Positions 3,540 through 32,538 of a DNA stretch of 33,007 nt are shown here, in pieces. Source of the stretch: Candidatus Nanoarchaeia archaeon (lineage in GTDB: Bacteria > Patescibacteriota > Minisyncoccia > Phycocordibacterales > DATGWK01); the NCBI GenBank assembly GCA_035299525.1, contig DATGWK010000081.1:1-33007 (forward strand), in the 5' to 3' direction. Both the position numbers and the translations under genes were made by a program. The notes beneath the pieces are model-generated. The model was not told the DNA's origin. It did no database searches and saw only the letters and a program-made list of their open reading frames with translations. Within the stretch, counting starts at the first letter, position 1. Each line of letters starts with the position of its first letter.

Positions 3540-4610
3540 TTATTTTGTTTTTTCTTCTTCTGCGCGATTGCGTTCAAGATCATGGAAGAGTTCCATAATA
3601 ATTGTTGCAATCGGAACTGCAATGAGAATACCGAGAAATCCTGCAAGCTTGGCACCAATGACCAATGCAAGAATGGAAATAATAGGCGGAACACCAATAA
3701 CCTTCTTTACAACAAGTGGGTAGATAAGCTGACTTTCAAACTGTTGAATAATCACATAAAACCCCGTAACAACTAGCGCCATAGTTACTCCACCAGTTGA
3801 ATAGCCGAAGAAGATTGCAGGTATTGCTGCCATAATCGGACCAAATAATGGAATAAGCTCAAAAATACCGGCAAGGAATGCAAGGAGAATTGCATGCTTA
3901 ACTCCAAGCAGTGTAAGGATAAGGTACACAAGTACCGCAACTATCACACCAAGCAACAACTGCCCCTGAAGCCACAGACCAATCTTTTGTTCTGCTCGAT
4001 TCCAAAGACCAATAACATATCGACGATGAGTCGAAGGAATAATGATTCGGAGAAAATTTGTAATTCCACCGGCCTGAACTGACAAATAGAACGAAAGAAC
4101 AACGATAAGAATAAAGTTCAAGAGACCACCAAGTACCAAGCTCGCTGTTGTGAATGCGTTTTGTGACAACGCGATCATCAAATTGTTTGCCTTCACTAAA
4201 ATTTCGGATACTGGAAGGTTATCGATAATACCAGAGAATGACGGGTCAAGACCTGGAATACTTCCCCCCAACCCAGTCTGAGGTATGCCGGATGCAGCCA
4301 GTGTTGTAGTTAGTTCTTGTATTTCACTAAGAAGTGGCAAAAGGAGGAAGTAGAAGGTTCCTACGAATACAATTGCAACGCCGGCATAGATAAGAAGCAC
4401 TGCGATAATTCGAGGAATTCTACGCTCAATAAACCACTTAACCATTGGCTCTATTGAAGAGGCGATGATTACCGAAGAGACAATAACAAGTACGATATCA
4501 AACAGATAAAACACGAGCCAGTAGAAAAGAAGACCGAGAAAAGCGATTTTGAGGATTGTAGTAGCGCTAACCGTTATCCTGGAAGTAGGAAGAGTTGGAT
4601 ATTCCATCAC
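3540..4610 (-). CDS. AI-2E family (PerM-like) membrane transporter
   Basis: 356-aa polytopic membrane protein with AI-2E-like helix spacing and conserved C-terminal segments (ELIPLFGP..., PPIISILALVIG). Confidence 0.75.
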   Translation of the reverse strand: MMEYPTLPTSRITVSATTILKIAFLGLLFYWLVFYLFDIVLVIVSSVIIASSIEPMVKWFIERRIPRIIAVLLIYAGVAIVFVGTFYFLLLPLLSEIQELTTTLAASGIPQTGLGGSIPGLDPSFSGIIDNLPVSEILVKANNLMIALSQNAFTTASLVLGGLLNFILIVVLSFYLSVQAGGITNFLRIIIPSTHRRYVIGLWNRAEQKIGLWLQGQLLLGVIVAVLVYLILTLLGVKHAILLAFLAGIFELIPLFGPIMAAIPAIFFGYSTGGVTMALVVTGFYVIIQQFESQLIYPLVVKKVIGVPPIISILALVIGAKLAGFLGILIAVPIATIIMELFHDLERNRAEEEKTK

Positions 4611-4643
4611 ACAATCATAGCACTACGTCTTGGAAGCACAATA

Positions 4644-5927
4644 TTAATTCTTTTTGAAGGTAAGAACCTGTTTTAGTTTTTGCTTATCAGCTTCTTTTAC
4701 ATCACCAATAACGGCAAAATTAAGTCGAGAATCGACAAATAACTCCTGTGCAATTTTCTGCACTTCCCTTGGAGTTACTTTTTCAATCTTTGTCACAACC
4801 TCTGAGGGCTTCTTTACTTCCCTTCGAAGCACTTCCTGCATACCCACATATTCTGCATTGGCATCTGAAGATTCCAGACCGAGGAACAAATTTCCGGTGA
4901 TGTAGTCCTTCGTTTTTCGAAGTTCAACAGCGCCAAGAGGCTCATCAATAAACTTTCGACATTCTTCAATGATGGCTTGCACTGATTCAATAAGACGATT
5001 CTTATCAACGCCGGCAGAAATAGTAAACATTCCGTGATCTGTAAACTCATCTGTGCCTGCTCGAACGTAATAACACACCCCCATCTGATCTCGCATTCTG
5101 TAGAAAAGTCTTGAACTCATACCTCCACCAAGAGCCGTTGCAAGAACTCGTAGCGCAGGAAGCCGTTTATCATTAACATCGAAAGAACGGACACCGAGCA
5201 CGAGGTGCATTTGATCTGTCTTCTTATCCTTGATCACGAGTGCGGGTTCAGTTTGACTTTCTTTTACTCTTTCTTTGTCATGTTTTTTGGCAGTGCTAAT
5301 AGAAGAGAAGGCGTCGGTTACCAACTTCCTAACTTTCTCTTCATCAATCTTTCCAGCAACAATAACGATTGTTCCTCTTGCAACGTAGTGTTTATCTCGA
5401 TACTGAACAAAGTGATCACGAGTCATCGCCCGAACATTCTCTCGTGAACCCGCGATTTCCCAACCAGCGGGCTGGTCCCCATAGAGCAACTCGGAAAAAA
5501 CATCATGAATATGTCGTTGGGGCATATCTTCGTACATATTGATCTCTTCTACGATAACCCCCTTCTCTTTTTCGATTTCCTTTTCATCAAATATCGGATT
5601 CACGTACATGTCCGCAATAATATTGATGAGCTGTGGCAGTTTTTTTGCCTGCGCTTTTGCGTAGTAGCCCGTGAACTCTTGAGAAGTGAATGCGTTGTAC
5701 TGCGCACCGAGAGAATCAAGTTCATGACTAATGTCTGATGCCCTTGGTCGGTTTACAGTTCCCTTGAAACACATGTGTTCAAGAAAGTGTGAGAGGCCGT
5801 TAATATCTTTTGTTTCGTATTTAGAACCTGCCTCCACAAGAACAAGCACTGTTGCCGTCGGTGTGTCTTTCATCGGGACAGTAATAATTCGAAGGCCGTT
5901 TTTAAGAGTTTGTTTTTTGAAATTCAT
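4644..5927 (-). CDS. M16-family zinc peptidase (insulinase/pitrilysin-like)
   Basis: Inverted zinc motif HFLEH followed by MCFKGT. The 427-aa length fits a two-domain M16 protein. Confidence 0.85.
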   Translation of the reverse strand: MNFKKQTLKNGLRIITVPMKDTPTATVLVLVEAGSKYETKDINGLSHFLEHMCFKGTVNRPRASDISHELDSLGAQYNAFTSQEFTGYYAKAQAKKLPQLINIIADMYVNPIFDEKEIEKEKGVIVEEINMYEDMPQRHIHDVFSELLYGDQPAGWEIAGSRENVRAMTRDHFVQYRDKHYVARGTIVIVAGKIDEEKVRKLVTDAFSSISTAKKHDKERVKESQTEPALVIKDKKTDQMHLVLGVRSFDVNDKRLPALRVLATALGGGMSSRLFYRMRDQMGVCYYVRAGTDEFTDHGMFTISAGVDKNRLIESVQAIIEECRKFIDEPLGAVELRKTKDYITGNLFLGLESSDANAEYVGMQEVLRREVKKPSEVVTKIEKVTPREVQKIAQELFVDSRLNFAVIGDVKEADKQKLKQVLTFKKN

Positions 5928-5933
5928 GAACGG

Positions 5934-5942
5934 AGTTTACCA
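5934..5942 (-). promoter_or_regulatory. extended -10 promoter element (TGgTAAACT) 6 nt upstream of the M16 peptidase ATG
   Basis: The minus strand reads TGGTAAACT-ccgttc-ATG, with no SD motif. This implies a leaderless transcript. Confidence 0.4.
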
Positions 5943-5956
5943 CAGATTTTTTGTAT

Positions 5957-5990
5957 AAAAAAAGAGGCCCCTCGCATACACAAAGGGGCC
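5957..5990 (-). terminator. intrinsic terminator of the GC-rich 197-aa ORF
   Basis: The minus strand reads GGCCCCT-11 nt loop-AGGGGCC followed by TC and T7. It lies 15 nt after the ORF stop. Confidence 0.6.
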
Positions 5991-10367: not shown

Positions 10368-10967
10368 CTAAAGCCCAGTGGCCTGAAGTGAATCATTTAT
10401 GACCCGTACTGCCTCCTTACGAACTGGAGCAAGGCTCATAACTAGCTCCACATCCCAATCGATACTCATATAGAACGGCTTTAATGTCTCCGTTTCTGGA
10501 ATATACCCAAGAATATGTAAAATTCTAAGAATTAAAATCGCTTCGAAGTTTCTGATTTGATCTGGAATATCAGTTGAAATACCAGTATCAAGAAAATCTA
10601 AACCATCATTTACAATCTGAAACAATTCCTGATTTGGATCTTCGCCAGCAAGAAGCTTTTTGATGAGATACAGCGTTTGCGCACAGAGTTTCTGCTTCTC
10701 GGGATCATTTCGGAATGTTGCGAAGTAGCTTTTTTCTGGAACAGCGCTAATGAGTCGCCACTTATTCTTTCCTCGAACAAGAGAGACCGTCGACCGGGCT
10801 GGTGCATCGATTGCATATCTAATTTTCGACTTCATACTTCGAGTACCCTGGGCATGCGCCCCGACAAGCCCAAGATCTCGGGTGAATACATAGACAAAAT
10901 CACTCGTCTCACCCGCAGCAATCTTGTCGAGGATGAGACCTGTTGTGTTGTAGACGTGATGAGACAT
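10368..10967 (-). CDS. recO: DNA repair protein RecO (short form)
   Basis: N-terminal OB-fold pattern typical of RecO (GLILDKIAAGETSDFVYVFTRDLGLVGAHAQGTRSMKSK...LVRGKNKWRL). Confidence 0.75.
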   Translation of the reverse strand: MSHHVYNTTGLILDKIAAGETSDFVYVFTRDLGLVGAHAQGTRSMKSKIRYAIDAPARSTVSLVRGKNKWRLISAVPEKSYFATFRNDPEKQKLCAQTLYLIKKLLAGEDPNQELFQIVNDGLDFLDTGISTDIPDQIRNFEAILILRILHILGYIPETETLKPFYMSIDWDVELVMSLAPVRKEAVRVINDSLQATGL

Positions 10968-11572
10968 TACAAGTTAAGAATCTTCAGAACTCTTTCTCCA
11001 TCATTTTCTGACTTTGTAACCTCAACAGTTTGGAATCCAAATTTCTTTGCTTCAGATTCTAACCACGAGTTAAACAGTGCGGCCCATTTAACCTCTTTTT
11101 CTTTTACATCATCTGAATAGGTATGCGCATCATCCCAGAGCCCTCGAGAAAAAATCACCTTTCTTATTCGGTCTACGTCGTGATCCACAAGAAAGATAGG
11201 GCGAACATATTCAACAGCAGGAAAATCTCGAGCAACCAAATGAGGTAAAACGGCCACGCCCTCAACAACAATAGATTCGCCCCCTTCTTCAGACCGATCT
11301 ACTATCTTTTTTATTTCAGTCCACACAACCTCCCCTTCCTCTCTTTCAATGTCTACAATCTCCTGTGGTGAAAATTTATTAAGAAATTCTTCTGCAGAAT
11401 ACTGAACCGCCTTGAATAATGCAGGATTTTTTTCTGAATCTGTTTTCTCTCTCATTTGCTCTCGAACATCATCAGTTGAGATGCACGGCACGCCCAACTT
11501 CTTAGAAAGAAGTTTTGCTATCGTTGATTTTCCAGTTGTTGGAGCGCCGCCAATAAGAATGACCCTCTTCAT
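10967..11572 (-). CDS. P-loop kinase, 2-phosphoglycerate-kinase-like
   Basis: ILIGGAPTTGKSTIAKLLSKKLGVPCISTDDVREQMR matches the 2PGK-type Walker A plus the STD..RE motif. It is translationally coupled to ileS and recO through overlapping stop/start codons. Confidence 0.65.
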   Translation of the reverse strand: MKRVILIGGAPTTGKSTIAKLLSKKLGVPCISTDDVREQMREKTDSEKNPALFKAVQYSAEEFLNKFSPQEIVDIEREEGEVVWTEIKKIVDRSEEGGESIVVEGVAVLPHLVARDFPAVEYVRPIFLVDHDVDRIRKVIFSRGLWDDAHTYSDDVKEKEVKWAALFNSWLESEAKKFGFQTVEVTKSENDGERVLKILNL

Positions 11573-14500
11573 TAGTTTAATGCAACCTTGAATGTAAGAC
11601 TCTCAACTTTTACTTCTTCCCAGTCCCGCAAAGCTTCGCCAGAAGCGGAGTGTGGACCTTCTGCCTCACCAAATGAAACACGTGAGATATGTGCGACTTT
11701 CTTGAGCTGGTCTTCATATTTCCTTACGAATGATTCGCCATCGCTATTGGTAGAAAGTGTAAGCGTTGCCAATTCACCAGGTTTAAGGGCGGTTTTCTTT
11801 CGCATGTCCTGAATAAATCGTGAAAGTTCTCGGAAGTTACCCTCTTCTCTAAGAGCGTCAGTAATATCGGTGTCGAGTACAACTTCCCCAACAATTTCTG
11901 AATCAAACAAAACCTCTTTTACGTTAACTTCATCGAGGATAAGTTCGATACATTCTTTTTTATTCTGTAGTGATGAAGATTTTACAAAAAGTTTAGAAAG
12001 TGGCTGACGAACCTTAATTCCCGCTTTTGCTCGGGCCTCAAGTGCGAGACTTACCACTCGTCGTGTTTCTACCATATCAGAGAGAAGCATCACATTATCA
12101 ACTGACGTTACAAGTGTTACCGGCCATTCATCGAGATGCACACTTTCCTTTTTACCACCAACGGTCTTGTATACCTCCTCTGCAACGAACGGTGTAAACG
12201 GTGCCATAAGTTTTGAAGTTTCAAGAAGAATCATTCGGAATGTTGAAAGCGCTTCCTTTCGTTCTGTTTCATCTTCACTCTTGAGTCGTTCTCGAGATCG
12301 TCGAAGATACCAAACAGAAACATCTTCAATAAACCCATCAATTGAGTTGAGAGCCTTGTTGAGTTCGTACGCCTCCATTGAAGTTGTTACTTCCGCAATC
12401 ACCACATTGAGCCGCTCAATGATCCATCGATCAAGAATATTTTTTGATTCGACTGTTGCTACTTCTCCCTCCTCTTTCTTGTAGGTTTCGTAGAAAGAAA
12501 CAACGTTCTTCAATCGCAAGATAATTTTCTTGTGAACTTCATCAACCCCCTTCTCTGAAAAATTAAGATCTTCTGATTTTAAAAGCGGTGAAGACATGAG
12601 GTAAAAACGAAGTGCATCGACTCCAAATTTATCGAAAATGAGTGCAGGGTCTGGGAAGTTACCCTTTGACTTTGACATCTTCGCCCCATCTTCAGCGAGC
12701 ACGGTACCTGTGGTTAAGACGTTCTTGAACGGTACCTTACCGAAGAGCATGACTGAAACCGCATGCATGTAGTAAAACCATGTTCGAGTCTGAGCGATAT
12801 ATTCAGAAACAAAATCTGCTGGATAATTCGCCTCGAATTTCTTCTTGTTCTCAAACGGGTAATGATTCTGTGCAAATGGCATTGCACCAGATTCAAACCA
12901 ACCGTCGATAACCTCACTTACACGCTTAACATGACCACCACATTTGCAAACATACGTAATTTCATCGATATATGGTCGATGAAAATCAAGCTCATAATCT
13001 TTGTCATGAGGAATTGGAGTGAATGCAAGGTCTCGCCACTCTCCAGTAGTCAGCTTCGTTTTTGAAATAAATTCCCTAATGAGATCCTTTCTATTGATAC
13101 CCCTTGAACCCGCTTCCAGGAAGAACGCAACGTCACCGTGAGTCACGATCAAGATTTTCTTTCCGTAATGCTTCCTTTCTAGGCCATACAGGAACTTCAT
13201 TGACCGTCGATGCACATCCATGAGCGTTTCCCCACCTTCTGACGCAGTATCAAAGCGCGACTCGGGTGAGTCAAAAGACGCGCGGTATTCTGTCCACGTT
13301 CTACCATTAAAAATTCCAGCGTTAAGTTCTGTGATTTCTGTTGATGTAAAAATGTTTTCTGACGAAACACCTATTTCCCTCGCCACGAGTTGTGCAGTTT
13401 CTTTTGCACGTTCAAGATCAGATGAATAAATAATGTCGATCTTCTCTTTCTTGAGTTTATGGGCGGATGCAAGAACCTGAGCCTTACCCACTTCAGTAAG
13501 TGTGTTCTTTGGATCTGGTTTGCAACTTACGGTGTCGTTAAGATTGTGCTGAGATTCACCATGTCGCATTACGACATACTTGTTGACTGCAGGAACTCGA
13601 TCTGTGATTTCTTTGAGTGAACCGAAACATTCCGTCTTCTCACATTTTTCACAGCGCCAAAATGGCAACGGTGATGCCCAGTATCGATTACGAGAAATGT
13701 TCCAGTCTGGCGCAGCTTCAACGCTGTTACCAAAACGACCATGTTTCAAATGCTCAGGAATCCAGTTGATGTCTTCGTTGAGTTTGAGAATTTCTTTCTT
13801 TACCGCCTGAATCTTGATAAACCACGATGGCAATGCGAAATACAAAAGCGGAGTTTCGCAGCGATGACAGTGCGGATATGAATGAACGATTTTTTCTTTA
13901 CCAAAAAGGAGTCCGCGGGCAGCAAGATTTTTTACGATCAGCACGTCAGACGATTGATGATCTTCTTTTGGCTTTGCCTTGAGACCAGCAAAATCAGTAA
14001 CATCAGCAATAAACTTTCCGTCTTGGCCAACGTGTCGAACAAACGGAATCTCATTCTTCTTTGCGAGATCCATGTCCTCTTCCCCATATGCCGGAGCGAG
14101 GTGCACGATACCCGAACCAGTATCTGCAGTTACATACGGAGCAGCGTAGACCTTCCAAGCATTTTCCCAGCCCCGCGAAGCTTCGTTAGAAACGAAGTGG
14201 GGCCCAGTTAAGTTTTTGTTCAAGAAATAATCAAACGGTGGTTTGTATTTCTTCCCTACCAAATCCTTACCTTTGATTTCCTCTACGATTTCAAATTCTT
14301 CTTTAAACAGAGATGTTTTATTTTTTCCAACAATAAAATACTCGTCTTTTACCTTTGCAATAACGTAATCGAGTTCTTCATTCACTGCAACGCCGGTGTT
14401 ACCAGGAAGCGTCCAAGGAGTTGTTGTCCAAACGATTAGGTAATGATTCGGCTCATTTTCGATAGCGAGTTTTACATACACAGAAATGTCAGAAATATCT

Positions 14501-15147
14501 TTGTATGAATTATCCATCGCGACTTCAGCATTTGAGATCGGAGTTTCGCAGCGCGGACAATACAAAAGAACCTTTGTTCCTTCGTAAATAAGTTTCTTAT
14601 CCCACATTTCCTTCATCGCCCACCATACGGACTCAATGAAGGTGTTATCCATGGTCATATACGCACCGTCATAATCTACCCAACGGCCAATTCGTTCGAT
14701 GGTGTGTTTCCACTCATGAGCATACTGCAGCACCTTGCTTCGTGCGTATTCGTTAAATGTATCGACACCAATTGCTTCGATCTCTTTCTTTCCGTTTACC
14801 TTGAGATCTTTTTCAACGATGTTTTCGATTGGTAAGCCGTGACAGTCCCAACCCCAACGTCGTTCAACATGATGTCCACGCATCGTTTGATAACGTGGTA
14901 CGGCATCTTTGATCGTACTGATTAAAATATGACCATAGTGCGGCAAGCCTGTCGCAAATGGTGGACCGTCGTAGAAAACGTAATTCCCAGCAGGAGACTC
15001 TTTCTTGAGACTTTTTTCAAATATATTATTGTCACGCCAGAATTTCAGTACTTTCTCTTCAGCCTGTGCGGTCGCGGACTTTCCCTGCCTCGCCGTAGCT
15101 TCAGCGGAGGTATGTTTGTTTTTATTTTCTTTATGGATATCAGCCAT
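11572..15147 (-). CDS. ileS: isoleucyl-tRNA synthetase (type 2) with an inserted histidine-phosphatase domain
   Basis: HYGH and KMSKS motifs, a CP1 editing domain (WTTTPWTLPGN), and the NISRNRYW and DFHRPYID...WFESG motifs. At 1191 aa it is unusually long because of an insertion of about 200 aa. Confidence 0.95.
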   Translation of the reverse strand: MADIHKENKNKHTSAEATARQGKSATAQAEEKVLKFWRDNNIFEKSLKKESPAGNYVFYDGPPFATGLPHYGHILISTIKDAVPRYQTMRGHHVERRWGWDCHGLPIENIVEKDLKVNGKKEIEAIGVDTFNEYARSKVLQYAHEWKHTIERIGRWVDYDGAYMTMDNTFIESVWWAMKEMWDKKLIYEGTKVLLYCPRCETPISNAEVAMDNSYKDISDISVYVKLAIENEPNHYLIVWTTTPWTLPGNTGVAVNEELDYVIAKVKDEYFIVGKNKTSLFKEEFEIVEEIKGKDLVGKKYKPPFDYFLNKNLTGPHFVSNEASRGWENAWKVYAAPYVTADTGSGIVHLAPAYGEEDMDLAKKNEIPFVRHVGQDGKFIADVTDFAGLKAKPKEDHQSSDVLIVKNLAARGLLFGKEKIVHSYPHCHRCETPLLYFALPSWFIKIQAVKKEILKLNEDINWIPEHLKHGRFGNSVEAAPDWNISRNRYWASPLPFWRCEKCEKTECFGSLKEITDRVPAVNKYVVMRHGESQHNLNDTVSCKPDPKNTLTEVGKAQVLASAHKLKKEKIDIIYSSDLERAKETAQLVAREIGVSSENIFTSTEITELNAGIFNGRTWTEYRASFDSPESRFDTASEGGETLMDVHRRSMKFLYGLERKHYGKKILIVTHGDVAFFLEAGSRGINRKDLIREFISKTKLTTGEWRDLAFTPIPHDKDYELDFHRPYIDEITYVCKCGGHVKRVSEVIDGWFESGAMPFAQNHYPFENKKKFEANYPADFVSEYIAQTRTWFYYMHAVSVMLFGKVPFKNVLTTGTVLAEDGAKMSKSKGNFPDPALIFDKFGVDALRFYLMSSPLLKSEDLNFSEKGVDEVHKKIILRLKNVVSFYETYKKEEGEVATVESKNILDRWIIERLNVVIAEVTTSMEAYELNKALNSIDGFIEDVSVWYLRRSRERLKSEDETERKEALSTFRMILLETSKLMAPFTPFVAEEVYKTVGGKKESVHLDEWPVTLVTSVDNVMLLSDMVETRRVVSLALEARAKAGIKVRQPLSKLFVKSSSLQNKKECIELILDEVNVKEVLFDSEIVGEVVLDTDITDALREEGNFRELSRFIQDMRKKTALKPGELATLTLSTNSDGESFVRKYEDQLKKVAHISRVSFGEAEGPHSASGEALRDWEEVKVESLTFKVALN

Positions 15148-15156
15148 ATTGGTGAA

Positions 15157-15185
15157 ATACTAGCCTTTTTTACTCTTTTGAGCAA
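15157..15185 (-). promoter_or_regulatory. possible ileS promoter TTGCTC-17-TAGTAT, 9 nt from the ATG
   Basis: The minus-strand hexamers lie directly after the terminator T-run. The resulting leader would be very short and has no SD. Confidence 0.3.
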
Positions 15186-15226
15186 AAGAAAAGGCCCCCG
15201 CTAGGCGCCATGGCATAGCGGGGGCC
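15181..15226 (-). terminator. strong intrinsic terminator (11-bp GC stem plus TTTTCTTTT) 34 nt upstream of ileS
   Basis: The minus strand reads GGCCCCCGCTA-12 nt-TAGCGGGGGCC followed by TTTTCTTTT. Confidence 0.7.
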
Positions 15227-15365: not shown

Positions 15366-15842
15366 CTAAAATGACAAGGCATCATTTATGACATACGAGG
15401 TAACGGTGTTGCCATCAGATGTATAGACAAATTCTGCTTTAAATTTCTCTTGACTGATTATTTTTGGAAACAAATATTTAAAATCTGACCATGCAGGAAG
15501 CTCAAGTACCTCGTTAGGATCAAACCACTGTGGTTTCATTTCCTCCGTTTCGATCGGTTCACCACTCCAATTCCTTACAATGTAAATATGGACATACATA
15601 CCCCAGCTTGGATCTGGATTTCGATATGAGACCTCTCCAATTTTCACCAAATCTCTTGGATCAACACCAACACCGATCTCTTCTTTTACCTCACGAACCG
15701 CAGTAATCTCGGGAGTTTCTCCAGACTGAACCTTTCCACCAGAACCATTCCACTTACCGACGCCGAATCCTCGCTTCTTCATCGCCAGGAGTATGTGACC
15801 GTTTGAGTTGATGAGATAGCAGTTGGTGGCGATTTTTTGCAT
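15366..15842 (-). CDS. NUDIX hydrolase (MutT-like)
   Basis: Nudix box GGKVQSGETPEITAVREVKEEIGV. I chose the ATG at 15842 (MQKIATN...) to avoid overlap with the argS 3' end. Confidence 0.85.
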   Translation of the reverse strand: MQKIATNCYLINSNGHILLAMKKRGFGVGKWNGSGGKVQSGETPEITAVREVKEEIGVGVDPRDLVKIGEVSYRNPDPSWGMYVHIYIVRNWSGEPIETEEMKPQWFDPNEVLELPAWSDFKYLFPKIISQEKFKAEFVYTSDGNTVTSYVINDALSF

Positions 15843-15852
15843 ATTGTTTTTG

Positions 15853-17610
15853 TTACATCTCTTCGGGGGCTCGGATTCCGATAAGTGAGAGCCCAACAGC
15901 AAGTGTATTTTTTACCGCTTCAGCAAGAGCTAAGCGATACGAAGAACTTTTGTTAGCCTTATCGATAATGACATTGTTTGCATAGTATGCATTAAACGTT
16001 GATGCCAATGTAATGAGATACGTCACAATGAGCTGTGGTGCGAGTTCAAGCTGGGCTCGTTCAACCACCTCTGGGAAGCGAACAAGAATGTGTTCGAGTT
16101 CACCCGGGTTTTCTACATGCTCAAGACATGGTTTAATTCCCTGCTCTTTGGCCTTTCTTAAGACAGAATTAATACGCGCATGAGCGTATTGAATGTATGG
16201 ACCAGAATCTCCTTCGAATGAAAGTGATTTATTAAAATCAAAAATAATATCTTTTCCCGGAGACTGCTTGAGAATCGAATACTTAATCGCACCAACCGCA
16301 ACATCAGTCATGATTTCCCTTTTCTGAGCAGCGGCAAGGTCTCGATCTTTCATCTTTTCTTCAACGAGTTTTTCAACATCTGCAATCAGCGATTCACCAG
16401 TGATCACATTTCCCTTTCGAGATGACATCTTACCTTCTGCGAAACGCATCATGCCGTGACTAATATGTCGTGTCTTGTTTGCAACTGTTGGATTTGCGAA
16501 TTCAAGAACTTTCAAAAATACCTTGTAGAAATCTGTTTGCTCGCTCGCAGTAATAACAATCGATTTATCATAATCAACCTGATCAAACTTCATCTTCGCG
16601 AGTCCAAGTTCTTTTGTCTCGTATGTCGGAAGACCTTGAGAATTGATGAATACACGAGTATGGAGACCGTATTCTTCACCCTTAAATACAACAGCCCCGT
16701 CACTTTTCACCAAAATTCCTTTTTCTAAAAGTTCTTCTGCAACAAACATACCGAGTGGAGCTGATTCGCTTTCAAAAAAGTATTTATCAAAATTGGTTCC
16801 AAGCTTTGCGTAGATTTCTTCAAAGTGAGCAAGACTTACCTTTCTACCCCAATCATAGAGTGCGTTAATTTCTGGATCAGATTTCTGATAAATCTTTTTA
16901 TTAATTTCATCAATTTCTTGCCTCGAACCTTCTTCATAAGATGAAGACCCTAGCACATAAGCTTCACCAATTTTTAAAATAGCTTCTCTTTCTCTAAAAT
17001 GCTTCATTAACTTACCCTCTTCATAAACTTTTGCCCCAAACCAAGAAGCAAGACCAAAAAAATCCAAAATTCTTCTCTTGTTCCAATACTTTTCCGTAAC
17101 TTCTGGAAGGGTCATTCCCAATCTCATCATGCCCCAAATTGCTTTCGCAACATGCGGACCAACATCACCCTGATAGTTCGCTCGAGTTACTTCTGCACCA
17201 CTCCATGTCGCAATTCGAGAAATAGCCTCACCAATTGAATTGCTCATCAAATGACCGATATGAAACGGTTTAAACGGATTTGGGTCAGTGAATTCGATAA
17301 TCACCTTCTCGCCATCAAGAATTGTATTTTTACCAAAGCTGTTTGGATCTTCGTTAATTTCTTTAATTACGTCCTGGAAATACTTTGGTGAATAAAAGAA
17401 ATTAATAAATCGCCCAACAAGAACAGCTTTCTCAATATATGGATGACTTACTGTTTCGAGTTTGAGATTCGCAATATCAAACCCCTTATCTTTTACGAAG
17501 AAAGAAAGATCGCCATTTTTGATATCTTTTGGCGGATTCAAATCAGCCTTCGTTGCTTTGATCGAAAGTTTTTCTAGTTCACCTATTACAATGTCGCGAA
17601 TATCTACCAT
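15853..17610 (-). CDS. argS: arginyl-tRNA synthetase
   Basis: HIGH-type motif (PFHIGHL), a KMSK-like motif (MSSRKG), and an ArgRS C-terminal DALR anticodon-binding region. I chose the start MVDIRD, which abuts the dut stop. Confidence 0.9.
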   Translation of the reverse strand: MVDIRDIVIGELEKLSIKATKADLNPPKDIKNGDLSFFVKDKGFDIANLKLETVSHPYIEKAVLVGRFINFFYSPKYFQDVIKEINEDPNSFGKNTILDGEKVIIEFTDPNPFKPFHIGHLMSNSIGEAISRIATWSGAEVTRANYQGDVGPHVAKAIWGMMRLGMTLPEVTEKYWNKRRILDFFGLASWFGAKVYEEGKLMKHFREREAILKIGEAYVLGSSSYEEGSRQEIDEINKKIYQKSDPEINALYDWGRKVSLAHFEEIYAKLGTNFDKYFFESESAPLGMFVAEELLEKGILVKSDGAVVFKGEEYGLHTRVFINSQGLPTYETKELGLAKMKFDQVDYDKSIVITASEQTDFYKVFLKVLEFANPTVANKTRHISHGMMRFAEGKMSSRKGNVITGESLIADVEKLVEEKMKDRDLAAAQKREIMTDVAVGAIKYSILKQSPGKDIIFDFNKSLSFEGDSGPYIQYAHARINSVLRKAKEQGIKPCLEHVENPGELEHILVRFPEVVERAQLELAPQLIVTYLITLASTFNAYYANNVIIDKANKSSSYRLALAEAVKNTLAVGLSLIGIRAPEEM

Positions 17611-28885: not shown

Positions 28886-30130
28886 TTAGATTTTTCTAGC
28901 AATTTCTAGCAAGCGATTGTATTTTGATACACGCTCTCCACGCGTAAGTGATCCGGCCTTAATGCAACCACAAGAGAAACCGACTGCAATATCAGCGATA
29001 CAAGTGTCTGTGGTTTCTCCAGAACGATGTGAGGCAAACGGAATCCAGCCCTGTTGAGTTGTTAGCATAACAGCATGCATTGTCTCGGTTAGGGTCCCGA
29101 TTTGGTTGGGCTTAATTAGCACAGAATTAATTGCTTCACCCTGAATCGCTTTTTCAATTCTTTCAGTATTAGTAACCGTGAGGTCATCGCCAACAATCTG
29201 CACACTACTACCTATTTCACGATTCATTTGTTTAAAACCAGACCAATCCTCTTCATAGAATCCATCTTCAATTGAAATAATTGGGTACTGATGAATAAGT
29301 TTTTTGTACCAATCCAAAAGCTCTGACGTTGTAACGCTCTTTCTAAGGCCGGAAATCTTTAATGTATATTCGTTGTGTTCAAAAAAACTCGTTGCTGCCA
29401 CATCAAGCGCAATCTTTATTTCATGTGTCGAATACCCCGCATCCTTGATCGCACGAACAATAAAATCAAGAGCTTCCTCATTTGAAGAAAGTCTTGGTGC
29501 AAATCCCCCTTCATCACCTACTGCTACAGAAAAACCACGGTTATGAAAAAGACCTCGTAATGCATAGATTACTTCAGCCGCCGCCTGAATTTTCTTTTCA
29601 AAAGACTCAATGCCGACCGGAGCAATCATAAACTCTTGTATATCAAGGCCACTGTCAGCGTGCTTACCGCCATTGATCACATTGAACATTGGCTCCGGTA
29701 ATTTAAATTTATTACTACCGATGAGGTTTCCAAGATGTTCATATAACTCAATATTGTTTTCTTGAGCGACAGCCCTTGCGAATGAGAGTGACACACCGAG
29801 AATTGAGTTGGCACCAAGTCGTGACTTGTTTGCTGTTCCGTCGATATCGACCAACAACTCATCGAGTGACTCTTGGGTAAGAGTTTTGGTTACAACTTTT
29901 TTTGCTATCTCACCAACTACATTTTTTACCGCACGTGTTACCCCAAGACCATTAAAACGGTTCGCGTCTTTGTCTCGCAACTCGTGCGCCTCAAACGACC
30001 CAGTGCTTGCCCCAGAAGGAACAGACGCCGTACCCAAAGATCCGCTCTCCAGTTCGCAGTTCACCTCAAGCGTCGGATTGCCTCGCGAATCAATGATTTC
30101 ATGTGCATGTAATGACTTTATTTTCGACAT
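28886..30130 (-). CDS. eno: enolase
   Basis: Enolase N- and C-terminal signatures: IDSRGNPTLEV, SGASTG..EA.ELRD, IKPNQIGTLTET and SHRSGETTD. Confidence 0.95.
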   Translation of the reverse strand: MSKIKSLHAHEIIDSRGNPTLEVNCELESGSLGTASVPSGASTGSFEAHELRDKDANRFNGLGVTRAVKNVVGEIAKKVVTKTLTQESLDELLVDIDGTANKSRLGANSILGVSLSFARAVAQENNIELYEHLGNLIGSNKFKLPEPMFNVINGGKHADSGLDIQEFMIAPVGIESFEKKIQAAAEVIYALRGLFHNRGFSVAVGDEGGFAPRLSSNEEALDFIVRAIKDAGYSTHEIKIALDVAATSFFEHNEYTLKISGLRKSVTTSELLDWYKKLIHQYPIISIEDGFYEEDWSGFKQMNREIGSSVQIVGDDLTVTNTERIEKAIQGEAINSVLIKPNQIGTLTETMHAVMLTTQQGWIPFASHRSGETTDTCIADIAVGFSCGCIKAGSLTRGERVSKYNRLLEIARKI

Positions 30131-30936
30131 TATAGTTTGTGAACATGGCGAGCCCTTCCAGACAAATGCTTTTCTGCTTCTACGATAATTTTTTCCATCA
30201 TAATCACCGCCTCAACAGGATGTTTGCCAATTGCTGTTTCTTCGGAAAGCATGACGGCATCTGACCCTTGAAGAATCGCATTTGCAACGTCAGTTACCTC
30301 TGCCCGGGTTGGGACGGGGTTATCAACCATTGAGAGAAGCATTTGCGTCGCAGTAATGACTGGCTTGCGAGCATTATTGCAACGAGTGATAATGTTTGCC
30401 TGCACAAATGGAATCTTCTCAAGTGGAATTTCACTACCCAAGTCTCCTCGAGCAATCATGATCGCATCAGCTGCAGAAATTATTGATTCGAGGGATTCTA
30501 GTGCCATTTTCCTCTCGATCTTGGCAATGATTTTTTGATTGCCTCCATTTTTTGAAATCGTTTCTCGACACGCCTCAATGTCCTCAGGGCCGGCCACAAA
30601 CGACACCGCGAAATAGTCGACACCCTGAGCAACACCAAAAGCAACGAGTTCCCTGTCGTGCTCGGTAAAACCTGCCTCAGCATGAGCGTCGTATGTATGA
30701 CCTTTTTCTTTTTGAATTCTGGGTCCTGGTAAATCTTCGATAATTGGAATTCTTCTTCCCAATTCCTCAGCAACCTCACGAACCATAGCAATCTGCTCTA
30801 CTCGCTCCGCAAGATCTGACCAAGAAAAATTAAGACGCACGACATCCACTTGGTGAGCCAAAAGCTCTTTTAGCTCATCCTTTCCTCCTCGAAGTGCGCC
30901 GATAGTCGCAACAATTTGGGCTTTTGATGTTGTCAT
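30130..30936 (-). CDS. pyk: pyruvate kinase-like protein, A-domain only (no B or C domain)
   Basis: PK barrel motifs are present: [39 protein letters not shown] and [11 protein letters not shown]. It is only 268 aa, compared with about 470 aa for canonical PK. Confidence 0.7.
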
Positions 30937-31562
30937 GCGTTTACTTGAGATTTTATTTCTCTTACTTCTTTTTTAATCATTCGCCCCTCTTGATCTAATT
31001 CGTAAATCACCACAGCACCAAACAGCATGTTGATTTTTGACACATCTTCATCCGAAACTCTTTCAATATACTTTGTAAGGGCTCTGATCGAGTTGCCGTG
31101 AGCAACCAACAGAATCGTTTTCCCCTGTCTCAATAGTGGCAATATCGTATCAAGAAAAAATGGCACTACTCGGTCGTACACCATTTTGAGCGTTTCACCA
31201 TTGGGCACAGGATAATCCCAACCACGCCTCAACTTCTCAAACTCCTCCTTGCCCAACTTTTCTTCCATCTCCCATTTATTTTTACCAGTGTAATTACCGT
31301 AATCGCGCTCATTGAGTGCAGAACTTCGCGTAATAGGAACGCTAATGCAAATACCGTCTTCCATACAAAGCAGGGTTTCAAGTGAACGCACCTGTTCTGA
31401 AGCAAATGCTTCATCAATGAGTTGATCCTTTATGAGACCACCCATTTTTTCGGACATTTCAAGTCCGTACTCTGTTAGACCAACGTCGACCTTCCCAGTC
31501 CATTTACCGAGCTTGTTCCATTCTGATTCATGGTGTCTGGCAACAATTAATTTTCCCATCAT
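30933..31562 (-). CDS. gpmA: 2,3-bisphosphoglycerate-dependent phosphoglycerate mutase
   Basis: dPGM pattern: [24 protein letters not shown] and [12 protein letters not shown]. Confidence 0.85.
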
Positions 31563-31563
31563 G

Positions 31564-32538
31564 CTATTTGTTTACTTGGTTCTGGACTACTCGCCCTTCA
31601 AAGAAATCAATAATATTGCGGGCTGTGATCTCTGCCATTTGATTTCGGGTTTCGATACTCGCAGAAGCAATATGTGGTGTGAGAATCACATTCTGCAATT
31701 TTCGAAGACCTCCGGAAACCTCGGGTTCAAACTCAAACACATCAAGACCAGCACCTGCAATCACATTGTTTTTGAGCGCTTTCTCCAAAGCAGCTTCATC
31801 AATCACAGCGCCACGAGATGTATTTACCAAAAAAGCCGTAGACTTCATGAGAGCAAGTCGTTCTGCATTAATCAGATGTCGAGTGGCATCCATGAGTGGT
31901 ACGTGAAGACTTACAATGTCTGCATTTTTTAATACATCTTCGTGTGTGGGATAGTATGCAGCAGCGCATTCTTTTTCTATCTTTTCATTTCGAGCAATAT
32001 CAGAATAGATCACATTCATTCCCAAACCCTTTGCATAGTACGCTACCCTTTCACCAATTCTACCGGCACCAATTAATCCGAGCGTCTTCCCGAGAATATC
32101 AACACCAACAAAATTCATTGGCGCCCAACCCTTGTATTTTTTCCTGCGAACAAACTCATCTGCCTCAACAATACGAGCAGCAAGTGCGAGCATTAGTGCA
32201 ATCGTGTGTTCTGCGACTGATTCAGCTGTCTGCGGCGCTGGAGCGTTTGTTACCACAACACCTCTCTTCTTTGCCTCTACGATATCAACATTATCAAAAC
32301 CCGTGGCATAATTCGCAACTATTTTTACTGACGGAGCAGCATCAAAAACCCGAGCATCAACCTTATCAGTTAATAATGAAAGCACTGCATCAAACTCACC
32401 CTTTCTCAAAATCTTAATGATTTCTCTTTGGGATGGGACTCTGTCTTTTGGATACACCGACACTTCGTATCCACGATCTCGAAGCATACTAATTCCAATA
32501 TCTGGAATCTTTCTTGTGACAAACACCTTTTTATTCAT
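31564..32538 (-). CDS. glyoxylate/hydroxypyruvate reductase (D-2-hydroxyacid dehydrogenase family)
   Basis: NAD motif (GLIGAGRIGERVA), catalytic region (NTSRGAVID...GLDVFEFEP...LTPHIAS), and overall GyaR-like layout. Confidence 0.85.
   Translation of the reverse strand: MNKKVFVTRKIPDIGISMLRDRGYEVSVYPKDRVPSQREIIKILRKGEFDAVLSLLTDKVDARVFDAAPSVKIVANYATGFDNVDIVEAKKRGVVVTNAPAPQTAESVAEHTIALMLALAARIVEADEFVRRKKYKGWAPMNFVGVDILGKTLGLIGAGRIGERVAYYAKGLGMNVIYSDIARNEKIEKECAAAYYPTHEDVLKNADIVSLHVPLMDATRHLINAERLALMKSTAFLVNTSRGAVIDEAALEKALKNNVIAGAGLDVFEFEPEVSGGLRKLQNVILTPHIASASIETRNQMAEITARNIIDFFEGRVVQNQVNK

Follow-up and report, generated by a model that had tools for sequence, protein, structure and literature searches.

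A type-2 isoleucyl-tRNA synthetase (IleRS) with a complete histidine phosphatase domain inside its catalytic core is encoded in the stretch of DNA analysed here (contig DATGWK010000081.1 of a Patescibacteriota assembly, positions 1 to 33,007, referred to as the window). This protein belongs to what is apparently a real, conserved and undescribed variant of IleRS, which carries a catalytic guest domain and has a split-gene counterpart. Judged from conservation and gene order, the most likely reading, in which we place about as much belief as doubt, is that the phosphatase is functionally coupled to the synthetase. The preliminary description of the window had remarked that no aminoacyl-tRNA synthetase was known to carry this domain. 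This held for the literature, where full-text searches found no description of an IleRS or any other aminoacyl-tRNA synthetase with a histidine phosphatase domain, but not for public sequence data, as the architecture is common among Patescibacteria metagenomes under generic names ('class I tRNA ligase family protein', 'histidine phosphatase family protein, partial'). Enzyme domains inside IleRS do have a precedent in an NCBI-curated family of IleRS with a GNAT domain.

A histidine phosphatase in the CP3 tip of IleRS

The ileS gene occupies positions 11572..15147 of the minus strand, on which all features of the gene given below also lie, as a single uninterrupted open reading frame (ORF) of 1191 amino acids (aa). 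Its product scored 854.2 bits against the NCBIfam model for ileS (TIGR00392, cut-off 621.4), and in Pfam the tRNA-synt_1 match falls in two stretches with His_Phos_1 between them. The closest structures in the PDB are IleRS2 of Priestia megaterium (8c8u, 5.7e-220) and the Thermus thermophilus enzyme (1ILE, 2e-208), and the relatives found there include eukaryotic cytoplasmic IleRS, whereas the type-1 enzyme of S. aureus (1ffy, 3.6e-78) is far more distant. These similarities and a DUF5915-type C-terminus in place of a zinc-binding C-terminal domain indicate a type-2 IleRS, as had been proposed.

The insert with its linkers spans aa 516-723 (12979..13602), as supported by Pfam, alignment, AlphaFold2 (AF2) modelling and Foldseek. 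The Pfam search that the preliminary description had suggested assigned it to His_Phos_1 (PF00300) at aa 525-704 (nt 13036-13575) with an E value of 2.8e-32 and 112.4 bits against a gathering threshold of 21.7, the match covering profile positions 2-181 of 194; the 200 aa from nt 12990-13590 scored alone gave 7.6e-34. The interval 12990-13590, first reported for the domain, fits the domain envelope (aa 519-718, nt 12994-13593), and only the lower bound given for its core, 13099, was off, by the trivial distance of about 10 residues past the motif ILIVTHGDV, which ends at 13129. Residue-level alignment to solved IleRS structures confirmed that about 200 extra residues lie in the catalytic core, where they take the place of residues 481-487 of T. 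thermophilus IleRS or 476-479 of P. megaterium IleRS2. The site is a 4-7-residue loop at the tip of the connective peptide 3 (CP3) zinc knuckle, between CEKC (aa 499-502, 13642..13653, aligned with the zinc-binding CP3 of T. thermophilus) and CKC (aa 734-736, within CKCG, aa 734-737, 12937..12948, placed by motif and alignment). In Candida albicans IleRS the equivalent point is at about residues 497-502, inside CP3 (residues 473-534). CP3 topology differs in each solved IleRS and the zinc motif is present only in that of T. thermophilus (PMC7191050). The guest domain therefore occupies the end of a surface structure that is variable by nature, in the insertion region of the Rossmann fold. The four CP3 cysteines are lost in two other insert-bearing IleRS (L008 and L019), and zinc binding is therefore not required to host the domain.

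The full histidine phosphatase signature that had been read from the translation was recovered in the insert as MRHGES (aa 527-532), SSDLERAKET (aa 575-584), ELNAG (aa 607-611) and IVTHGD (aa 667-672). All residues of the PF00300 catalytic core (R528, H529, R580, E607, H670) are present. On the basis of residue conservation, His529 of the RHG motif is the predicted phospho-acceptor nucleophile (Arg528-His529, 13561..13566), Arg580 the phosphate-pocket arginine (13408..13410), Glu607 the predicted proton donor in E-x3-G-x-F-x-G (13327..13329) and His670 the distal catalytic histidine (THG, 13138..13140); Glu640 (13228..13230) belongs to a conserved G-E motif. An AF2 model of the insert, built from a 33-sequence alignment, had a pLDDT of 95.6 and a pTM of 0.92. 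Foldseek matched this model with a probability of 1.00 and TM scores of 0.7-0.77 to small branch-1 histidine phosphatases and short mutases, including PspA (4ij5/4ij6), the GpgP protein Rv2419c (4pz9/4qih), CobC (6e4b), PhoE (1h2e/1ebb) and the S. pombe phosphoglycerate mutase (1fzt); sequence searches with the insert agreed, and 1fzt was the top match in both. The domain has a near neutral isoelectric point (7.1 +/- 1.7) and is not markedly basic.

The NCBIfam cut-offs for the characterised functions of this superfamily were not reached by the insert, which scored 65-70 bits for CobC (TIGR03162, cut-off 162.9), 60-65 for PspA (NF045917, cut-off 350) and 35.2 for dPGM (TIGR01258 pgm_1, cut-off 81.7). 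Its acid motif is ELNAGIFNG rather than ERxYG; we take E-x3-G-x-F-x-G to be characteristic of phosphatases and ERxYG of mutases, and the domain would thus be of the phosphatase type (PhoE/CobC/PspA-like). The possibility that the insert serves as the phosphoglycerate mutase of the organism was rejected, since it falls below the dPGM cut-offs, has no ERxYG motif and coexists with a separate dPGM. This gene, already recognised as gpmA at 30933-31562, encodes a 209-aa His_Phos protein with the motif NERDYG that is 29% identical to the insert and scored 156.8 bits against TIGR01258 (cut-off 81.7). The mutase gene is flanked by a pyruvate kinase ORF of 268 aa and a gene for a 2-hydroxyacid dehydrogenase (window 30130-32538, minus strand), the pyruvate kinase looking truncated with the barrel domain only (best stretch, profile positions 173-328 of 328).

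Distribution, integrity and selection

A survey for the insert, proposed in the preliminary description, found it in 20 species representatives of the GTDB and in dozens of further protein clusters, all from Patescibacteria. The search with the junction region yielded at least 35 clusters at 90% identity that combine PF00133 with PF00300, and every junction cluster with a named source came from this group (Nomurabacteria, Paceibacterota, Sungbacteria and Parcubacteria). The 20 insert-bearing loci of the GTDB scan share an identical insertion point. An exhaustive search of 1.84 billion cluster representatives with the insert alone returned, among the best 150 matches, dozens of proteins that are 1147-1275 aa long and have the domain near residue 500. 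Pooling of these sets gave 139 near-complete domains embedded in IleRS, mostly from representatives of 50%-identity clusters, and the architecture is present in more than 100 divergent protein clusters, all of them from Patescibacteria.

The insertion is genuine rather than a fusion artefact, as had been argued from this sequence, for the frame is continuous in the window and remains open for 1148-1366 aa across the insert in every related locus uncut by a contig end. Matches of less than 600 aa in the junction search are fragments. Two of these lie on long contigs (L035 and L036) in frameshifted assemblies with broken neighbouring genes, and we rejected the idea that they are genuine split genes: ileS and its neighbours (e.g. 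BipA) are each cut into several ORFs. These splits are probably indel errors of long-read assembly, and they inflate the database count of 'partial' IleRS-phosphatase proteins.

Conservation of the active site is nearly complete across the embedded domains. Arg528 and His529 are each found in 132 of 132 sequences and Arg580 in all 139, while the Glu607 position holds E or D in 138 of 139 and Glu640 and His670 are each kept in the same proportion (138/139). In a comparison with L001, the closest relative at 81% overall identity, the insert showed nonsynonymous and synonymous differences per site (pN and pS) of 0.18 and 0.73 and a dN/dS of about 0.07, the same as in the C-terminal tRNA-binding domains of IleRS, a ratio that is approximate as dS is saturated. 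Purifying selection thus acts on both halves of the protein, which are intact, and the pattern of substitution and spread shows an ancient and widespread architecture whose insert is maintained as an enzyme rather than as decaying cargo. The GC content of the insert is 0.440 and that of the remaining gene 0.426. Recent horizontal acquisition was rejected as an origin, since the composition of the insert is that of its host and the site is common across deep divergence. One embedded domain (L019) has lost about 40 cap residues between the acid motif and the G-E motif and has kept its catalytic residues; it is a natural cap-less variant whose active site is presumably more open.

Free-standing relatives encoded beside ileS

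The nearest free-standing relatives of the insert form a large family of proteins of about 190 aa in Patescibacteria (305 clusters at E < 1e-10). Nealsonbacteria and Parcubacteria are the sources given for named members, and one member carries the JGI label 'isoleucyl-tRNA synthetase'. The catalytic residues are retained in this form, and the start N-x-Y-x-x-[LM]-R-H-G, including the conserved N522, is common to free-standing and embedded domains. A profile of the family scored the insert at 176.5 bits and the genome's own dPGM at 60.4. By profile score, start motif and ileS location, the window insert falls within the ileS-linked phosphatase subfamily (P0148-like) that we define here.

In all seven loci examined, the free-standing phosphatase gene immediately precedes ileS in the same orientation, with gaps of 1-129 nt. 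These loci span three IleRS subtypes; six of the downstream ileS genes are complete (931-966 aa) and have no insert, and the seventh runs off the end of its contig. In loci with both flanks visible, the order is argS - phosphatase - ileS - recO - DUF11/CLIPPER protein, and the same argS-ileS-recO-DUF11/CLIPPER block, minus the separate phosphatase gene, is kept in the window and in the insert-bearing loci. The flanks of the 17 insert-bearing loci with a complete ileS ORF contain no separate His_Phos ORF; the fused form and the adjacent-gene form exclude each other. The subfamily was seen in these searches in the context of ileS or valS only.

In a neighbor-joining (NJ) tree of the IleRS hosts, with the insert masked, the adjacent-gene forms make up two separate clades nested among the insert-bearing forms, with L029/L032 (adjacent-gene) as sister to L006/L013 (insert-bearing) in this weakly resolved tree. 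The interleaving therefore implies at least two fusion or fission transitions, to the extent that a weakly resolved NJ tree can indicate them. The NJ tree of the domain itself shows only that free-standing and embedded forms are interleaved. These observations amount to a Rosetta-stone pattern, with a single module in two genetic formats (fused or as an adjacent gene). In a Nealsonbacteria genome (L024-L026, ~4600-5960), an RVT_1 reverse transcriptase and a bAvd accessory gene, a pair resembling a diversity-generating retroelement, lie immediately upstream of the free-standing phosphatase-ileS pair.

Additional copies, additional sites and a second synthetase

Some IleRS carry two phosphatase domains, namely P0171, P0213 and P0229 (1419-1468 aa) and P0185 (1087 aa, probably incomplete). 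Up to three sites are used in these proteins: both CP3 halves, a position after the DxWFESG strand, and one between the stem-contact fold and the anticodon-binding domain; in some the copies are in tandem within CP3. Every complete extra copy has kept its catalytic residues except for a Glu640-to-Gln change in P0185.1. Further, a metagenome protein (P0121, 1161 aa, incomplete) with a valS profile match of 1e-122 over its first 225 aa is a valyl-tRNA synthetase (ValRS) with four histidine phosphatase domains, three of them complete with intact catalytic residues, and the phenomenon therefore reaches a second class Ia synthetase. In another metagenome IleRS (P0196, 1066 aa), a CP3 histidine phosphatase (aa 680-854) and a GNAT domain after the WFESG strand (aa 935-1063) are encoded in a single frame. 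Within its CP1 region, the same protein also has a Y1 transposase domain of the IS200-like type (aa 340-461). Simple N-terminal fusion, which would be the form most easily expected from the gene order, by read-through from the upstream gene, was found in 0 of 43 full-length proteins.

The preliminary description had placed the phosphatase next to the aminoacylation site. This did not find support, as the insert is at the distal tip of CP3 and relatives have the domain in other loops or encode it separately; these alternatives speak against any strict geometric constraint.

Proposed role and alternative explanations

The coupling of the phosphatase to IleRS can be formulated as follows. In this IleRS of a Patescibacteria bacterium of the Parcubacteria/Paceibacteria type, the PhoE/CobC/PspA-like phosphatase in the CP3 tip loop is the fused form of a conserved two-gene module, whose split form in related lineages is a separate gene of about 190 aa next to the 5' end of an insert-less ileS. 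From the chemistry of the superfamily, a phosphomonoester would be hydrolysed by way of a phosphorylated His529; Arg528, Arg580 and His670 would hold the phosphate in a pocket, and the Glu607 acid would protonate the leaving group. The synthetase part would charge tRNA-Ile normally, in keeping with its housekeeping position in argS-ileS-recO. Because insertion sites and copy numbers vary, the role would be tied to IleRS, and in at least one case to ValRS, by tethering or co-expression and not by an exact position at the synthetic site. The substrate would not be 3-phosphoglycerate but most likely a phosphomonoester linked to translation, for which a by-product or inhibitor of nucleotide type, a tRNA end blocked by phosphate and the synthetase in phosphorylated form are candidates. 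The embedded phosphatase is apparently competent for catalysis, and the evolutionary link of this subfamily with ileS (and valS) persists in the fused and the separate form alike.

Several observations weigh against such coupling. The use of several insertion loops and the existence of a stand-alone form imply no fixed geometry relative to the active site, so that direct channelling is unlikely. The adjacency could be a historical by-product of fusion or fission (e.g. by tandem duplication) within a conserved syntenic block, and both NJ trees, of the domain and of the masked host, are too weakly resolved to count insertion events. The insert scored above the cut-off of no characterised equivalog in NCBIfam. 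In the neighbourhood, a conserved kinase, toxin or other partner was not found, and PADLOC gave no defence-system match.

The strongest competing explanation, which we consider possible but less likely than coupling, is that the domain is an independent passenger: an ordinary small-molecule or nucleotide phosphatase needed by reduced genomes, without a mechanistic tie to aminoacylation. Its location would then stem from inherited synteny and from the tolerance of CP3 and other surface loops for insertions, with fusion only securing co-expression with an essential gene. Most characterised branch-1 members of about 200 aa do act on small molecules, as illustrated by the nearest structures (PspA, GpgP, CobC and PhoE), the variable sites and copy numbers show that a fixed geometry is not needed, and CP3 is structurally plastic among IleRS (PMC7191050). 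The unrelated GNAT and IS200-like Y1 domains inside Patescibacteria IleRS suggest a permissive host, and the argS-ileS-recO block is strongly syntenic regardless of the phosphatase. However, this explanation does not readily account for the link with ileS in all seven free-standing cases, across three divergent IleRS subtypes and with very short intergenic gaps. It must also accommodate a recurrent internal insertion in the face of no simple end-to-end fusion among 43 proteins, the presence of the domain in ValRS, and the restriction of the subfamily to ileS or valS contexts in these searches.

One particular form of coupling would be repair or quality control of class Ia synthetases, in which the phosphatase strips phosphate or pyrophosphate from the tRNA acceptor end, or phosphate from the synthetase. 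The blocking group would be installed, for example, by a toxin kinase or toxSAS-type enzyme of a host organism, a competitor or a phage. We regard this form as rather improbable; the conserved active site, the obligate link with IleRS or ValRS and the multiplied copies are compatible with it but do not support it specifically.

A role in self-protection, a narrower and more speculative variant of coupling, is unlikely. Here the phosphatase, and the GNAT domain in some relatives, would inactivate an inhibitor directed at IleRS or reverse toxin-installed phosphorylation of the synthetase or tRNA. GNAT enzymes detoxify aminoacyl-adenylate mimics, HipA-type kinases phosphorylate aminoacyl-tRNA synthetases, and toxSAS toxins pyrophosphorylate the CCA ends of tRNA. 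The host enzyme is of type 2, the class associated with mupirocin insensitivity, and its closest PDB structures are IleRS2; P0196 pairs His_Phos with GNAT, and NCBI curates a GNAT-containing IleRS family (NF040702). Nevertheless, synteny marks the housekeeping copy and not an accessory paralogue, the MupA/MupB scores are far under their cut-offs, and neither a PADLOC match nor a conserved toxin or kinase partner was found nearby. Histidine phosphatases, moreover, use phosphomonoesters, whereas the known nucleotide inhibitors of aminoacyl-tRNA synthetases are phosphoramidate or sulfamoyl diesters.

That the domain is a non-catalytic module, i.e. a pseudo-enzyme or a structural, tRNA-binding or regulatory appendage of CP3, is very improbable. 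In class Ia synthetases, tRNA binding is a frequent role of idiosyncratic CP insertions, and a phosphate pocket could in principle hold a terminal RNA phosphate. Against this, at least 138 of the 139 divergent copies retain the catalytic residues, as do the extra copies and the free-standing form, and the isoelectric point of the domain is near neutral. Finally, an artefact in which mis-assembly, a chimera or a frameshift joined a phosphatase gene to ileS, conceivable for metagenome-derived sequence with ileS in pieces in L035 and L036, is effectively refuted. An identical in-frame insertion point recurs in 20 independent genomes at species level and in dozens of additional clusters, the insert has a host-like base composition and is under purifying selection, and the broken cases are confined to assemblies whose neighbouring genes are fragmented too.

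Comparison with known systems

The window IleRS shares the HIGH motif, CP core, CP1 editing domain, CP2, CP3, KMSKS motif, anticodon-binding domain and DUF5915-type C-terminus with the solved type-2 enzymes (8c8u, 1ILE), and a CP3 zinc knuckle with that of T. thermophilus. It differs from the type-2 enzymes in having a complete enzyme domain of about 200 residues in place of a CP3 tip loop of 4-7 residues. In LeuRS the leucine-specific domain, and in IleRS the variable CP3, are likewise insertions in a surface element, CP3 topology varying between IleRS (PMC7191050); these are small non-enzymatic modules, in contrast to the window insert, which is an autonomous enzyme domain that also occurs as a separate gene.

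Among histidine phosphatases, PhoE (1h2e/1ebb), PspA (4ij5, a phosphoserine phosphatase), CobC (6e4b, an alpha-ribazole phosphatase) and Rv2419c (4pz9, a glucosyl-3-phosphoglycerate phosphatase) have the same fold, the same catalytic Arg-His/Arg/Glu/His set and the E-x3-G-x-[FW]-x-G motif. The insert is 21-24% identical to them and is distinguished by being embedded in, or encoded beside, an aminoacyl-tRNA synthetase. Superfamily and fold are shared with dPGM/GpmA, without the ERxYG mutase motif. The bifunctional RNase H/acid phosphatase (Rv2228c type, NF005567) also joins a CobC-like phosphatase to a nucleic-acid enzyme and is the top NCBIfam match of the insert (77.7 bits, far under the cut-off of 326); those proteins are end-to-end fusions with another partner, whereas the window protein has an internal insertion. 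The curated family NF040702 ('isoleucine--tRNA ligase, N-acetyltransferase domain-containing') provides a precedent for an IleRS with an extra enzyme domain, with a different guest.

Other features of the synthetase and its neighbourhood

The IleRS motifs on either side of the insert are intact, in agreement with the preliminary description. The HIGH-type signature HYGH (aa 70-73, 14929..14940) lies in the first half of the Rossmann fold and KMSKS (aa 823-827, 12667..12681) in the second, both identified as motifs in the translation. The CP1 editing domain extends approximately over aa 201-426 (13870..14547), boundaries set from the CxxC pairs of a first Cys4 knuckle that brackets it (CPRC, aa 197-200; CHRC, aa 427-430). 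It contains the Thr-rich motif WTTTPWT (aa 240-246) and the GxG-VH motif GSGIVHLAP (aa 344-352), and Pfam gave a weak match to the LeuRS editing domain at aa 330-374. The motif FHRPYID (aa 722-728) lies between the insert and CKCG. The anticodon-binding domain (Anticodon_1, aa 906-1052, 11992..12432, Pfam E 3.2e-31) is followed by the C-terminal IleRS domain DUF5915 (aa 1076-1162, 11662..11922, E 1.7e-09, 38 bits against a cut-off of 27). The window IleRS is not a member of MupA/MupB (NF000257/NF000258; 697 and 745 bits against a cut-off of 1900) or of NF040702 (315 bits against 1999, with no acetyltransferase match in Pfam). The argS-ileS-recO synteny identifies this ileS as the housekeeping copy as opposed to an accessory paralogue.

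Downstream, a 201-aa P-loop kinase (10967-11572, minus strand) has an ATG that overlaps the ileS stop codon (TAATGA). It scored best with 2-phosphoglycerate kinase (NF003259), at 79 bits (cut-off 343), and matched AAA_18, AAA_33 and Zeta-toxin weakly. By this overlap, a small-molecule kinase is translationally coupled to the phosphatase-bearing IleRS in the window. It was rejected as a conserved kinase partner, since the gene is missing even from L001, the closest relative, where a membrane protein and an SGNH-like ORF are encoded instead.

Upstream, between argS and ileS, both the window (15366-15902, minus strand) and L001 encode a NUDIX hydrolase, which in the window matches the PADLOC candidate family PDC-S07 (E 1.5e-15). 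The listed TTG start of this gene overlaps the end of argS by 50 nt, so translation probably begins at a later codon. Upstream of the ileS start, at about 15165-15215 of the minus strand, there is a GC-rich hairpin (GGCCCCCGCTA...TAGCGGGGGCC) with the T-run TTTTCTTTT after it. This structure resembles a terminator of the NUDIX gene, and ileS would then have its own promoter; a simple terminator scan of the region upstream of ileS found nothing, probably because of the long loop of this hairpin. No T-box or other Rfam element was found in the ileS leader, and the only PHROG match in a search for a phage link was to a family without assigned function.

Significance

Few enzymes have been studied as thoroughly as the aminoacyl-tRNA synthetases, in whose Rossmann-fold core new catalytic domains are rare. 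The architecture described here indicates that CP3 and other loops of class Ia synthetases can host whole enzymes, which may be of use in protein engineering, and the fused and split proteins offer a directly testable pair. If the phosphatase acts on tRNA or on the synthetase, it would represent a new type of translational quality control; if that action is repair, the IleRS (and ValRS) of these episymbionts would be 'self-repairing', with an activity embedded in an aminoacyl-tRNA synthetase that has no earlier description. If its substrate is neither, the module would clearly exemplify how an essential gene can capture a metabolic enzyme. The pairing of the phosphatase with ileS has been kept over a long evolutionary span. 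Together with the recurrence of the insert in well over 100 divergent Patescibacteria lineages, its additional copies and sites and the ValRS counterpart, this points to a need, so far unrecognised, that translation or a minimal-genome lifestyle imposes across a very large and uncultivated portion of bacterial diversity.

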